Positions 44,301 to 50,300 of a DNA stretch of 64,000 nucleotides are shown here, piece by piece. Where the stretch lies: assembly GCF_044324875.1 (NCBI RefSeq), contig NZ_CP172186.1. One strand, 5' to 3'. Each line of letters starts with the position of its first letter. Positions within the stretch are counted from its first letter, which is position 1. The position numbers were made by a program. The stretch comes from Escherichia coli (lineage in GTDB: Bacteria > Pseudomonadota > Gammaproteobacteria > Enterobacterales > Enterobacteriaceae).

Positions 44301-47300
44301 TGTTTATGGAGAAGATATCCATATTAATAATCATGGTAATATTTCAGGCTCATATAATAGCCAAAAAGATGCTTATAACACATCAATAATTTTTTCTGCT
44401 GGGTATAATTCATTAGATATTTATTCAGATTCTGTGATTAATGGTGATATTAAACTAGCTAGTATACCTGTTAATGGTACAAATGAATTAATTATTAAAA
44501 ACATCAATAACGCAACAGCAATTAATGGTGGGCTAATGATTGGGAATGGCTCGTCTGTTTATCTGTCAAGCAAGAACATCATTTTTAACGGAAATATAAG
44601 TATTGATGAAGACGCATCTATGAACCTGTCTGCAGGAAATGCTAATGTTCACGCAAATACTATTACATTAAAAAGTGATTCATGGCTTAATATAGACACA
44701 TCAATTAAGAACTGGACTCAGGACTATTACACATTATTGTCGTCAGACACAGGTATCTCGATCGCTGATAATAGTCACATTGTACAATACAATGTATTAC
44801 TGACAGAAGGTGCTGAAAGTTATGTTTATACGTCTTTAAATGACGACGATAACAAACTGATATCCATGCTGAGATGGAATAATACAAAAGGGATGGGATA
44901 TGGAACCTTTAATATAGAAAAAGATGCCACTCTGAACATAGGAGTTTCTCTTTCCGATAATCTTTCACCTTTATTATATGATGGCTGGGACGGCAAAAGT
45001 CTGACAAAATCAGGTAATGGTACTCTTATACTTTCTGCAACAAACAACTATACAGGAAATACAGAGGTTAAATCTGGCGTATTAATTCTTGCTGCACCTG
45101 ATGCTCTTGGTCGGACTGAGTATTTATATTTATCCCGTGGCGCAGAACTGGATATGAATGGGTATCCTCAGACAATAAGCAAACTACTGACGGCTGCAGG
45201 CTCTGTGCTGAACATTCATGGCGGAAGCCTGATACTGAATAATGGAGGAGAATCTGCAGGTACTATTGCAGGGGATGGTTCTCTGAACATAAATGGGGGA
45301 ATGCTTGATATAACGGGTAATAATCGTAATTTTTCCGGTGTTTTTACCGTGAATAAGGGGGCTCAGTTGGCTGTATCCACGGCTGATAATCTGGGGACAG
45401 CCTTTGTTGATAACTATGGCACATTAACTCTGAACAGTACATCAGCATGGCAGCTTACCAACAATATCAGTGGTTATGGTAATGTTCGCAAGACGGGAGC
45501 AGGTGCACTGAACATTAGCGATAACGCAAAATGGACCGGGATGACAGATATTATTCAGGGGACATTGATTCTGGGTAACGCAGATTCACCGGTGATGCTC
45601 GGCAGTAACCAGGTCATTGTTGAAGAGCAGGGCAAACTCTCCGGGTTTGGGGGCGTTGCAGGAAATCTGAGCAATAGTGGTATAGTCGATCTCACTACAT
45701 ATATGCCGGGTAATATACTGACTGTCGGAGGGAATTACACTGGCAGAAATGGACTTATTCTCCTCCAGACAGAAACAGGTGGTGACAATTCGAAAACAGA
45801 TCGTCTGGTGATTAAAGGTAATGCCAGTGGCCGTACCCGTGTCGCTGTTACTCAGGCCGGTGGTACTGGTGCAGAGACACTTAATGGGATTGAAGTGATT
45901 CACGTCAGTGGCAATGCTGATAATGCTGAATTCATTCAGACGGAACGTATTACAGCCGGAGCTTATGATTACATACTGAAACGTGGTCAGGGGATTAACA
46001 GCACTAACTGGTATCTGATTAGCAGAAAAGACATTCCTGTACCACAACCTGAAGCTGTACCGGAAAACCATGATAATAATTTGCGTCCTGAGGCAGGTAG
46101 CTATGTTGCCAGTATTGCTGCTGCAAATAATCTGTTTGTAACGAATCTGTATGAACGACAGGGACAGGAGTTGTATATCAGCCACATGACAGGAGAAGAA
46201 AATGAAGCAGGTATCTGGATGTATAATAAAGGAAAACATAATCGCTGGCGTGACAACAGTAGTCAGCTGAGAACCCGGGGGAATAGCTACGTTGTGTTAA
46301 TAGGGGGAGATATAGCTCAGTGGAGCCTGAATGGTACCGATCGCTGGCATACAGGTATGATGGCTGGCTATGGTCATAATCATAACAGTACGAATGCCCT
46401 GAGCACCGGATACCATTCGGAAGGAAGAATGAATGGATACACTGCGGGTCTTTATGCAACATGGTATGCCAATGATGAAACACACAATGGTTCTTATCTT
46501 GATAGCTGGCTGCAATACAGCTGGTTTGATAATCATATAAATGGAGAACGGCTGCCTGCTGAGTCATGGAAGTCAAAAGGGTTTACGGTATCTCTGGAAG
46601 CAGGATATTCATGGAAGGCTGGAGAGTTTACCGACAATTACAAGGGAAGTCATGAATGGTATGTTCAGCCGCAGCTTCAGGTTGTCCGGATGAATGTAAA
46701 ATCAGACAGACATCGTGAAAGTAACGGAACCAGTATTGAAAATACCGGTAACGGAAATATTCTCACTCGCCTGGGAGCGAGAACATGGTTTGTCAGTAAA
46801 AACGGTAAGAATTCACGGTATGCAGTTCCTCTCAGGCCATTTGTAGAAGTAAACTGGCTGCACAATAGTCGTGTTTTCGGCACCAGTATGAATGGTGTAA
46901 GTATTTACCAGGATGGGGCGCATAATATCGGAGAAATAAATGGTGGTGTTGTGGGAGTGATAACTCCAGAAGTGGTATTGCGGGCTGATGCAGGCATTCA
47001 ACTTGGAGAGCATGGATACCGCAATGCATCTGCTATGTTCGGCGTGGAATATCGTTTCTGATGACTCTTTACATTATGAACATTCTTCGCAATATATTGT
47101 TTATAAGGCATGGTTAGCTGGGGGAAGCGGAAAATATGAAGACAGTAATGATTTGAACCGCCCCGGAAATCCTGGAGACTAAACTTCCTGAGAAAGATGT
47201 AAACAGGATGACTAAAAATACTCGTTTTTCCCCCGAAGTCCGTCAACGGGCAGTTCGTATGGTTCTGGAAAGCCAGGGCGAATATGACTCACAATGGGCG

Positions 47301-50300
47301 GCAATTTGTTCCATTGCTCCAAAGATTGGCTGTACGCCAGAGACCCTGCGTGTCTGGGTTCGCCAGCATGAGCGGGATACCGGGGGCGGTGATGGTGGGC
47401 TCACCACCGCTGAACGTCAGCGTCTGAAAGAGCTGGAACGCGAAAATCGTGAACTGCGCCGCAGTAACGATATCCTTCGCCAGGCTTCCGCTTATTTTGC
47501 GAAGGCGGAGTTCGACCGCCTCTGGAAAAAATAATGCCACTGCTGGATAAGCTGCGTGAGCTGCAGTGAGCTGCATATTGCCCCGTCAACGTATTACCAC
47601 TGTCAGCAACAGCAGCATCATCCTGATAAACGCAGCGCCCGTGCGCAGCGTGATGACTGGCTGAAGAAAGAGATACAGCGCGTATACGATGAAAATCACC
47701 AGGTGTACGGTGTGCGTAAAGTCTGGCGTCAGTTGTTACGGGAAGGTATCAGAGTGGCCAGATGCACTGTGACACGTCTTATGGCGGTTATGGGTTTTGC
47801 CGATGTTCTCCGGGGTAAAAAGGTCCGCATTACCGTCAGCCGGAAAGCCGTTGCCGCAGGCGACCGCGTAAACCGTCATTTCGTGGCAGAACGTCCTGAC
47901 CAGCTGTGGGTGGCTGATTTTACTTACGTCAGCACATGGCAGGGCTTTGTTTATGTGGCGTTCATCATTGATGTGTTTGCCGGATACATCGTGGGATGGC
48001 GGGTCTCCTCGTCCATGGAAACGACATTCGTGCTGGATGCACTGGAGCAGGCGTTGTGGGCCCGTCGTCCATCTGGCACCATCCATCACAGCGATAAAGG
48101 CTCTCAGTATGTATCGCTGGCCTACACGCAGCGGCTTAAGGAAGTCGGATTACTGGCATCAACAGGGAGCACAGGCGACTCGTATGACAACGCGATGGCG
48201 GAGAGCATCAATGGTCTTTACAAGGCGGAGGTAATACACCGTAAGAGCTGGAAAAACCGGACAGAAGTGGAGCTGGCTACACTCACGTGGGTGGACTGGT
48301 ATAACAATCGACGATTGCTGGAAAGGCTGGGCCATACTCCCCCGGCAGAAGCAGAAAAAGCTTATTATGCTTCCATCGGAAACAATGATCTGGCAGCCTG
48401 AGTTCACAGACAAAACATTCTCCAGGAAACCCGGGGCGGTTCAATATGGATACCAGCTGTTCACTTCCAGAGCGGGCTGTTACCCGCTCTGCGTCATGTT
48501 GCCGCCAGCGGGCGACAGATCGCCCGCAGGGCGACGGCGCTGCACAGCGGAAACAGCGCCAGCAGAAGCCAGGGATAAACCGCCTGCGGCGACGGAATGA
48601 GCGCCTGGTCAAGTAAATGACCGAGCAGTAAATTCCCGGCTAACACCGCGCACCCTCCTGCGGTGGCGAGCGCTCCGTAGTGGGCGCCCAGCGTCGACTC
48701 CTCGGCGAACAGCGGGATCAGATCCTTGGCTGCGGGCACTAACAGCATCTGGCCGAGGGTGAGCAGCGTGACAAAACCAGCCGCCGGCATTAACCGCAGC
48801 CAACTTTCGGCGGGTGGGGCGGCGGCGAATAACGCCACGCTGGCAAAGGAAGCCGACAGCAGCAGAAAGCCCACCGGCAGGATGCGCACGGCGCCCATTC
48901 GCCGGGCGAAGCGGGCGAGAGGGAGCTGGAGGGTGATAATCAACAGCGAGGCCAGCATAAAGAGCGGCGCCAGATCCTGCTCGCGGCCGCCGGAACGTTG
49001 GATCTCCACCGGCAGAGCGAGGTAGAGTTGGTTGTAGCTCAACAGCCATGAGCTGTAGGCGAGAATAAACGCGACAAAGCGCGGCTGGCGCAAAGGCGTC
49101 CACCATGGGACTCGTCTGCGCGTTGTTGTCGTGTGCCCGTCGGCGGGCAGACCGAAAAAGAGCACCGCCAGCGCCAGAAGAAATATTCCCGCGCCGGCGA
49201 GGGCGATATGTCGAAAGCCGATCCCGCTCAGCACGCCTCCGGCCACCGGGCCGATCACCGCTCCCAGTTCACCGCATACCGCAAACAGCGCAAACCACTC
49301 GGCGCGGCTGCGTTTCCCGTTGGCCTGGCTGTGGGTACCGGCCCGCGCCAGCAGGGCCTCTATCGACGGGGAGAACAGGGCGCCGCCGACGCCGGTCAGG
49401 CAGGCGCCAAGGATAATGGCCCACAGCGACGCCCCGCACGCCAGCAGGAGAAAACCGGCGACGCGAACGACGCAGCCGGCGAGAATGATCGCCTTAGCGC
49501 CATAGCGGTCGGCCAGCGTCCCGCCGAGGATAAACATCCCCTGTTGGGAGAAGGTACGCAGCCCGAGGATCAGGCCGATAAGTCCGCCTGAGAGCAGCAT
49601 GTCGTCGCGCAGGAAGAGGGCGAGGAAAGGTACGACCGCGTAAAAGCCAATATTAAAAACGAACTGGCTTCCCAGTAACACCGGAGGCCAGAGGGTTGCC
49701 GCAGGGCGCAGGGAGAAAAGAGGCATATCCGCCCAACCTAAACGATGAAATGAATGTGCTTTTTGCCGTGGTAAGGGGAGATCTCGATTTTGGTTTTCAC
49801 CCGGAAAACGTCCCACAGCAGCGCTTCGGACAAAATCTCCTCCGGCGTCCCGCTGGCGAGGATCTGCCCCTGCTGCATCACGATCAGCGAATCGCAGAAC
49901 ATCGCGGCATGGTTAAGATCGTGAATGGCCACAATGCTGGTTACCGGCAGCTCGCTGATCAACTGCATTAACTGCATCTGATGGTGTATATCCAGATGGT
50001 TGGTCGGCTCATCCAGCAGGATTTCGCTCGGGCTCTGCGCCAGCGCGCGGGCGATATGCACCCGCTGCCGCTCGCCGCCGGAGAGGCTTAACCATCCCTG
50101 TTCGCTTTTCTCCAGCATCGCTACCCGCTGCAGCGCGGCGGCAATCGCTTCGTCATCCTGAGCGCTCCAGTTTGAGAACGGAGAGTGGTGGGGAATGCGT
50201 CCCAGGCGCACGACGTCGCGCACCCGCATATTGGCCTCGGTCATGCCGTGTTGCTCGACGCAAGCCACGCGGCGGGCGAGCTGCTTTTTCGCCATCCGGG

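Follow-up and report, generated by a model that had tools for sequence, protein, structure and literature searches.

Three copies of an IS629-type insertion sequence (IS3 family), here called A, B, and C, lie in the analysed window, a stretch of 64,000 nucleotides from Escherichia coli (contig NZ_CP172186.1). The sequence-only reading of this window had set copy C apart as a shorter, substituted variant with an altered orfA-orfB junction and had described it as either a different isoform or a decaying copy. The locus raises the question of which of these it is, and of whether such an element can still move. We consider it very likely (probability about 0.9) that copy C is a defective, non-autonomous IS629-type element that belongs to an isoform lineage other than that of A and B, and that its allele spread by inheritance and recombination.

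A search for inverted repeat motifs and alignment to copies A and B placed copy C at exactly 47154-48443 on the plus strand, with TGAACCGCCCCGG and CCGGGGCGGTTCA as its outer boundaries. The element is 1290 bp long compared with 1310 bp for copy A, as previously estimated, and the entire difference comes from one 20-nt gap with no further indel. Both terminal inverted repeats, delimited by sequence and alignment, are of the IS3/IS629 type (about 25 bp, 5'-TG...CA-3'): TGAACCGCCCCGGAAATCCTGGAGA on the left (47154-47178, plus strand) and TCTCCAGGAAACCCGGGGCGGTTCA, an imperfect complement of the left repeat, on the right (48419-48443, plus strand). The terminal 25 nt of the right end are identical in C and A. 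The difference in repeat-proximal bases noted earlier, CCGGAAATCC versus CCGGGTTTCC, is an orientation artefact: A and B are on the minus strand, so that the text at their low coordinates is the reverse-complemented right end, with which the left end of C had been compared. Compared properly, the left ends read CCGGAAATCC in C and CCGGGAATCC in A and B, a single-nucleotide difference, and the left ends of IS1203 (EC4115) and of the copy in strain 702/18 are identical to that of C.

The two other copies represent a different isoform. Copy A (16457-17766, minus strand; inverted repeat search and alignment) is intact at 1310 bp, and a 404-aa OrfAB that exactly matches an NCBI protein could be reconstructed from it. 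Copy B (31060-35076, minus strand) was found by alignment to be split by ISCro1, an IS66-family element of 2699 bp (31254-33952; 99.9% identical to an annotated ISCro1), into a left part of 1124 bp (33953-35076, minus strand) and a right part of 194 bp (31060-31253, minus strand). These parts add up to 1318 bp, that is, 1310 bp plus an 8-bp target duplication (GGAAAAAC), and A and B differ by one mismatch in 1124 positions. Copy B reads through the orfA-orfB junction yet is interrupted by ISCro1, an interruption absent from the earlier reading.

Alignment that included an undeleted relative, CP099214, mapped the deletion in copy C between 47561 and 47562 (plus strand); the lost 20 nt are AGTACGGGGTCGGACCGGTA in the relative. 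Upstream of this junction, orfA is intact (47208-47534, plus strand) and encodes a 108-aa protein with the HTH_Tnp_1 helix-turn-helix domain (PF01527, 48.2 bits); exactly this protein is encoded on at least 1000 contigs. The terminal TAA of orfA is older than the deletion, being present in CP099214 as well. In the -1 frame, sequence and reconstruction leave only a stump of orfB (47534-47569, plus strand), which starts with ATG at 47534, encodes MPLLDKLRELQ, and stops at TGA (47567-47569), whereas A and B continue at the same junction as MPLLDKLRKLYGVGPVCSELH..., in agreement with the stop reported for copy C alone; the -1 frame ends after 24 codons. What remains of orfB, a frame of 281 codons that starts at a GTG (47556-48401, plus strand), retains the HTH_21 domain (57.9 bits) and the rve DDE core (98.6 bits) and matches NF033516 with 292.9 bits at profile positions 107-369 only. 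It lies in the orfA frame, behind the TAA stop (47556 - 47208 = 348, a multiple of 3). Reconstruction of OrfAB with either candidate -1 junction yielded 404 aa for A, IS1203, and the copies from IAI39 and 702/18 but 120 aa for C, which lacks the IS3-family arrangement in which orfB overlaps orfA in the -1 frame and the shift yields OrfAB.

Slippage between direct repeats was rejected as the source of the deletion: microhomology is absent at the breakpoints, and slippage between the GTGAGC repeats nearby would have cost 30 nt, not 20. A sequencing or assembly artefact was rejected as well, given that the identical 20-bp gap is found in 41 independent complete E. coli records and in two metagenome contigs. 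Nor does a single sequencing-type indel account for the divergence of copy C, which carries 79 substitutions relative to A besides the gap, spread across the entire element, as the first inspection had indicated.

In the IS3 family, a -1 slip at UAU_UUU_G by ribosomes reading orfA is the only route to OrfAB. What stimulates this slip is the ALIL pseudoknot, formed by pairing between the apical loop of stem-loop 1 and an internal loop of stem-loop 2, which lies about 45 nt downstream; this pseudoknot was reportedly described for IS3411 by Mazauric and colleagues in 2008. Based on the current RefSeq OrfAB models and the Rfam alignment, we placed the -1 shift site of copy C at 47495-47498 (plus strand), where the slippery U_UUU within UAU_UUU_G is intact. 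The Rfam ALIL model (RF01497) has this motif conserved at its 5' end, and joining OrfAB at U_UUU reproduces exactly the NCBI proteins for IS1203 and copy A. Stem-loop 1, directly 3' of the shift site, is intact too (GGCGG-AGUUCGA-CCGCC, GGCGGAGUUCGACCGCC; 47503-47519, plus strand; Rfam alignment and ViennaRNA fold), and together with the slippery region fits the model perfectly. Copy C departs from the model in stem-loop 2, which has neither its 5' arm nor its internal loop: both the GGGGU arm and CGGACC, the sequence of the internal loop, fall within the deleted 20 nt. The partner of the apical loop of stem-loop 1 is gone, and therefore the loop-loop interaction that defines ALIL cannot form. 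The RF01497 score drops from 116.2 bits in A and B to 63.8 bits in C, where the alignment skips 29 model positions, and the predicted stability of the 3' structure (ViennaRNA) is -22.5 kcal/mol in A and -30.1 kcal/mol in IS1203 compared with -9.5 kcal/mol in C. Thus, of the frameshift window that had been singled out for checking, the shift site and stem-loop 1 stand and half of stem-loop 2 does not. PGAP still labels ALIL in copy C because 63.8 bits exceeds the 50-bit gathering score; this database label is misleading.

We propose that a single 20-nt deletion stripped stem-loop 2 of its 5' strand and internal loop, probably leaving the frameshift stimulator unable to form, and moved the DDE-encoding body of orfB to the orfA frame, behind the TAA. 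A ribosome that shifted at U_UUU would then yield only the 120-aa product. Copy C could still express OrfA, and perhaps also OrfB in an N-terminally truncated form. Judging from its sequence, it cannot make OrfAB and, lacking OrfAB, would be unable to transpose on its own. With both inverted repeats intact, it could in principle be mobilised in trans if OrfAB were supplied by copy A or by chromosomal copies. The deletion allele would be inherited with ColV/ColBM-type plasmids and would have reached other contexts mainly via homologous recombination among the many IS629-type copies of E. coli. Two observations run counter to a purely defective copy: the remnant of orfB is still an open frame of 281 codons with an intact catalytic domain, and the several contexts would also fit trans mobilisation followed by rearrangement of the flanks.

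Copy C lies downstream of the autotransporter gene aatA, at a distance of 92 bp, with eitD 50 bp away. Its flanks (att|...|ata) show no 3-bp target-site duplication, so that the element marks a junction between two plasmid modules. Each of the 25 complete E. coli records that contain the full aatA-IS-eitD locus has the deletion; the locus spans exactly 2401 bp in every one of them, and no undeleted element was found at this locus among these 25; eight PLSDB records contain the locus. In the passages of Dai et al. 2010 (PMC2944236) on the flanks of aatA, IS629 is among the 3'-flanking mobile elements of four compared aatA loci, and eitD is a flank marker of the APEC_O1 plasmid variant. The IS629 element 3' of aatA that they describe in pAPEC-O1-ColBM occupies this very locus and is copy C itself, at 100% identity; those passages mention neither a deletion or defect nor an isoform difference. 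In pAPEC-O1-ColBM, it is annotated as a pseudogene, "IS3 family transposase, frameshifted," which is also the PGAP label of copy C. The pAPEC-O1-ColBM and AR_0089 plasmids match the window only from about 38 kb onward, and no complete E. coli record was colinear with window positions 14000-38000.

Beyond this locus, the deletion allele is rare, occurring in 41 of 20,395 E. coli records compared with 30,785 IS629-type places overall, and a metagenome scan for the deletion junction recovered two contigs only. It is carried by plasmids and by one chromosome, and its flanks represent at least four contexts. A 3-bp target duplication was found in none of the at least four contexts examined, whereas three of the five intact copies examined have one (EC4115, taa; 702/18, att; TUM9803, caa). 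Some copies combine segments of different isoforms: the chromosomal copy of strain 135 is of the IS1203 type from position ~980 on, and the pHB42 copy contains an A-type patch at 544-697. In one metagenome contig (L016), the right flank is that of the trbC/IS1A context and the left flank and the 5' 300 bp differ, which is the signature of a crossover. The deletion-allele copies are clearly recombinant mosaics. The lack of target duplications and the mosaic copies together suggest that the allele spread with its plasmids and through homologous recombination rather than by autonomous transposition.

The same distribution bears on the possibility that the deletion allele, although non-autonomous, is successful because OrfAB of intact IS629-type copies actively moves it in trans. 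Both of its inverted repeats are preserved and hardly differ from those of intact copies, it has reached several contexts, and copy A on the same plasmid could serve as a source of OrfAB. Against this, target duplications are seen at intact copies only, changes of context coincide with mosaic switches and the L016 copy shares a single flank with another context, as homologous crossover predicts, and the allele accounts for very few of the IS629-type places. Moreover, IS3-family transposases act preferentially in cis. We therefore regard active trans mobilisation as improbable. We would give little credence to a persistent IS629 derivative that makes OrfA but no OrfAB and is either moved in trans or kept as a repressor-only copy damping IS629-family transposition.

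The defective element favoured here did not arise from the lineage of A and B. Copy C shares with IS629, IS1203, and IS3411 the TG...CA inverted repeats, the HTH_Tnp_1 domain of orfA, the HTH_21 and rve domains of orfB, and the ALIL region. Under the ISfinder convention, at least 90% nucleotide identity to a named IS defines an isoform, and copy C passes this threshold, with PGAP-labelled copies standing in for the ISfinder references. It is 94.5 to 96.2% identical to intact 1310-bp copies, including those labelled IS1203 and IS629 by PGAP, but differs from them in its 1290-bp length, the loss of half of stem-loop 2, the out-of-register orfB, and the missing target-site duplication. The closest intact relative is the 702/18 copy (96.2% at aligned positions, 94.9% with the gap counted, 49 mismatches), compared with 95.7% (55 mismatches) for the IAI39 copy, 96.0% for an IS629 fragment labelled by PGAP, and 94.5% (71 mismatches) for the PGAP-labelled IS1203 copy of EC4115; the suggested label "IS1203-like" finds no support for copy C. 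Identity to copy A is only 93.9% at aligned positions, in addition to the gap. The earlier claim of at least two sources of IS elements holds: A and B differ at one of 1124 positions and C differs from both at 6.1%. Divergence of 4-5% between IS629 isoforms has been documented (Rump et al. 2011, PMC3271280).

The divergence of C from A is overwhelmingly synonymous, with pN/pS of 0.02 in orfA and 0.10 in orfB, compared with 0.09 and 0.10 between the intact isoforms A and IS1203. Since these values are as between intact isoforms, the divergence must have built up in a functional lineage, before inactivation. The sole undeleted member of the C lineage found, CP099214, is 98.6% identical to C and retains the 20 nt; it is otherwise defective: 10 bp are deleted, orfA is truncated, and the right end is degenerate. 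Since the deletion, the C lineage seems to have gained few, mostly non-synonymous private changes, although the counts are tiny (three synonymous and six non-synonymous differences between C and the AR_0085 allele). Among the deletion alleles, pN/pS is raised, and the copies of LH10-b-1 and strain 135 share a second frameshift (1-nt loss, alignment column 684). Decay in place of an element that shared its source with A and B, with a single source lineage, would fit the common IS629-type architecture of the three copies on one plasmid, the inactivating deletion, and the private non-synonymous changes. The substitution pattern argues otherwise, with pN/pS far below the ~1 expected of neutral decay, A and B only 1 nt apart, C nearer to intact copies of other strains than to A, and an undeleted relative of C present elsewhere; this very improbable alternative is effectively refuted. 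Both parts of the original either-or hold, isoform-level pN/pS on the one hand and an inactivating deletion on the other, and the "or" should read "and": copy C is, on this pattern of substitutions, an isoform lineage separate from A and B that was later hit by the 20-bp deletion.

A new mode of expression, namely, an OrfA-OrfB fusion via read-through or recoding of the TAA, or regulation of other IS629 copies by OrfA and truncated OrfB, is scarcely credible: the remnant of orfB is in frame with orfA with no stop between the TAA and the remnant, its DDE domain is intact, and OrfA is identical to a widespread protein, but such a frame coincidence is expected by chance in one of three cases, no E. 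coli stop codon is more efficient than UAA, for which no read-through context is evident here, the TAA was already there in undeleted CP099214, sub-lineages of the deletion allele acquired a further orfB frameshift, and pN/pS is raised among the deletion alleles.

Copy C is an ordinary defective mobile element, already annotated as a pseudogene in RefSeq, and has little significance beyond annotation. Defective IS629 copies are commonplace, as exemplified by the IS629 copy "with a unique internal deletion" that is kept in a mobile region of E. coli O55:H7 (Rump et al. 2011, PMC3271280), likewise internally deleted and retained but in another strain and at another locus. For automated annotation, the case calls for caution because an "ALIL pseudoknot" passes the Rfam threshold with half of its structure gone. 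Between aatA and the eit operon, copy C is no active transposon but a dead marker of a junction, and its deletion allele provides a handy marker for the aatA-eitD plasmid variant. The mosaic copies offer a worked example of flanks being shuffled by homologous recombination between IS copies, with no transposition involved, and the history of this APEC virulence plasmid included the gathering of IS629-type elements from at least two lineages.

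The three IS629-type elements (IS3 family) in the window, denoted copies A, B, and C, map to 16457-17766 (1310 bp, minus strand), 31060-35076 (minus strand), and 47154-48443 (1290 bp, plus strand, exact element bounds), respectively. Copy B is not a simple copy, as had been assumed, nor simply truncated, but a full A-type element with one mismatch to copy A, split into two parts (33953-35076 and 31060-31253) by ISCro1 (IS66 family, 2699 bp, 31254-33952), which is flanked by an 8-bp target duplication (GGAAAAAC). Alignment of copies C and A revealed a single indel, a 20-nt gap located between 47561 and 47562 of copy C, and 79 substitutions across the whole element (93.9% identity), so the two differ by more than one indel. 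The junction in copy C reads GTGAGC followed by TGCAGTGAGC, and comparison with CP099214, an undeleted relative (98.6% identical), identified the lost segment as AGTACGGGGTCGGACCGGTA. The frame starting at ATG 47534 of copy C encodes MPLLDKLRELQ and ends at TGA 47567-47569, whereas copies A and B continue past this point as MPLLDKLRKLYGVGPV... The alignment and reading frames thus confirm what had been noticed by inspection, namely, a shorter copy C with scattered substitutions and a stop where copies A and B read through. The sequence-only reading also contrasted the element ends, CCGGAAATCC in copy C versus CCGGGTTTCC in copies A and B; A and B have the opposite orientation to C, so this comparison set the left end of copy C against the reverse-complemented right end of the other two. 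Like for like, the left ends (CCGGAAATCC and CCGGGAATCC, respectively) differ by one base, with the copy C base also found in IS1203 and other intact copies, and the right ends agree over all of their terminal 25 nt.

The deletion falls in ALIL (RF01497), the pseudoknot signal for the -1 frameshift that joins orfA and orfB into the OrfAB transposase. ALIL forms through pairing between the apical loop of stem-loop 1 and the internal loop of stem-loop 2 (PMC5009743; also the Rfam alignment). With the deleted 20 nt, stem-loop 2 loses one strand of its basal stem (GGGGU, on the 5′ side), its internal loop (CGGACC), and the first part of its upper stem. The Rfam score is 116.2 bits in copies A and B versus 63.8 bits in copy C, where the alignment skips 29 model positions, and the predicted stability of the 3′ structure is -22.5 kcal/mol in copy A, -30.1 in IS1203, and -9.5 in copy C. 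We placed the shift site at UAU_UUU_G (47495-47498, plus strand) because OrfAB joined there exactly matches current NCBI proteins for IS1203 and copy A; no protein in the collection corresponds to copy A OrfAB joined at the alternative A_AAG. This site is unaltered in copy C, 5 nt upstream of stem-loop 1 (47503-47519, plus strand, GGCGG-AGUUCGA-CCGCC). Thus, the slippery part of the frameshift window is intact, but the 5′ half of stem-loop 2 is lost. Both Rfam and PGAP label ALIL in copy C (47489-47575), with a score still above the gathering threshold (63.8 versus 50 bits). Lacking half of stem-loop 2, the annotated signal is predicted to be non-functional.

With either junction, reconstructed OrfAB is 404 aa long in copy A, IS1203 (EC4115), and the intact copies of IAI39 and 702/18, compared to 120 aa in copy C. 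The orfB body of copy C now shares the orfA frame, behind the orfA TAA stop. The orfB remnant (GTG 47556, plus strand, 281 codons open) retains the HTH_21 and rve core (98.6 bits), and its match to NF033516 is limited to profile positions 107-369. Given the stop and the frame move, copy C, despite intact ends and orfA, has no apparent route to the fusion transposase and is predicted to be incapable of making it. The PGAP label in pAPEC-O1-ColBM and related plasmids is “IS3 family transposase, frameshifted”; copy C is an ordinary defective IS, annotated as such before.

Copy C had been considered either an isoform or a decaying copy; each description holds, and the pN/pS values together with the inactivating deletion indicate that it is both. 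Between copies C and A, orfA shows 14 synonymous changes and 1 non-synonymous change (pN/pS 0.02), and orfB 43 and 14, respectively (0.10), compared to pN/pS of 0.09 and 0.10 between the intact isoforms A and IS1203. Such mostly synonymous divergence, as between intact isoforms, indicates that most of it accrued while the copy C lineage was functional, before the loss of function. Intact copies from other strains are closer to copy C than copy A is: identity is 96.2% to the 702/18 copy, 96.0% to a PGAP-labeled IS629 fragment, 95.7% to the IAI39 copy, and 94.5% to PGAP-labeled IS1203 (EC4115), against 93.9% to copy A. IS629 sub-types 4-5% apart are on record (PMC3271280). The synonymous divergence and this proximity to copies of other strains bear out the proposal of at least two IS source lineages in the window; the suggested IS1203/IS3411-like label is unsupported, with IS1203 at 94.5% versus 96.2% for 702/18. 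The sole undeleted member of the copy C lineage found (CP099214.1, 3001-4300) is itself defective (1300 bp, 51-codon orfA, degenerate right end GGAAACACGGGCGGTTCA). A few private changes that arose in the copy between aatA and eitD once it was deleted, at alignment columns 662, 663, 670, 697, and 1012, turn OrfB GLAG into GFAD, T into I, and A into V. Between deletion alleles, that is, copy C-type elements with the 20-nt gap, pN/pS is about 0.6 on very small counts, which is consistent with relaxed selection.

Copies A and B form a pair of near-identical direct repeats on the minus strand (16457-35076) around ~13 kb; the counterpart of this interval in a plasmid segment with 100% identity carries genes for a raffinose/sucrose-type sugar module (alpha-galactosidase, MFS transporter, GH32 hydrolase, and carbohydrate porin). 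This layout resembles a composite transposon; no target duplication was detected outside the A-B pair (outer flanks aac and gta). In pMTY9803_IncBOKZ, an A-type element with one mismatch to copy A (2501-3810) lies inside an aatA-like autotransporter gene within a clean 3-bp duplication (caa), which shows recent transposition of the A isoform.

A spacing of 92 bp separates copy C from the preceding autotransporter gene aatA (43564-47061, 3498 bp), and one of 50 bp separates it from eitD. In related plasmids, flank homology on each side ends exactly at the copy C termini, and the flanks are att and ata; copy C therefore sits at the join of two modules. For the aatA loci compared in PMC2944236, IS629 is listed among the 3′-flanking mobile elements, and eitD serves as the flank marker of the APEC_O1 plasmid variant. 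The part of the window from ~38 kb on has a position-by-position match in both pAPEC-O1-ColBM and the AR_0089 plasmid. For 14000-38000, no colinear record was found among complete E. coli records (best coverage 75%, in 11 pieces), so this ColV/ColBM-type plasmid arrangement is absent from that collection. Another IS3-family element forms a 986-nt inverted repeat (5317-6302 and 42080-43065, 96% identity), with remoter copies (73-74% identity) at 28939-30114; in related plasmids, it corresponds to a CDS at 42068-43299 adjoining ISEc8.

A count over 20,395 complete E. coli records gave 30,785 places with IS629-type sequence, but only 41 records with the 1289/1290-bp deletion allele. These include 25 records of the aatA-IS-eitD locus (deletion in 25/25), 6 with the allele in another plasmid context (pLH10-b-1-A type), 9 plasmids with it in a trbC/IS1A interval (flanks read for AR_0085, pHB42-5, pXDL-2, and a metagenome contig with the shared right flank; the rest assigned from identical match spans), and the strain 135 chromosome. 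The strain 135 and pLH10-b-1-A copies have in common a 1-nt loss at alignment column 684, in the A5 run of GGTAAAAAGG; this second frameshift in orfB sets the two apart as a sub-lineage. Trans-mobilization is an improbable route of spread: none of the deletion-allele copies examined has a 3-bp target duplication, which is present in 3 of the 5 intact copies examined, and several are mosaics. The strain 135 copy is IS1203-type from about position 980 on, the pHB42 copy carries an A-type patch (544-697), and the metagenome contig shares the trbC/IS1A right flank but differs in the left flank and first 300 bp. Crossovers and conversion between IS copies yield such patterns. From these comparisons, we conclude that the deletion allele most likely owes its spread to the plasmids carrying it and to homologous recombination.
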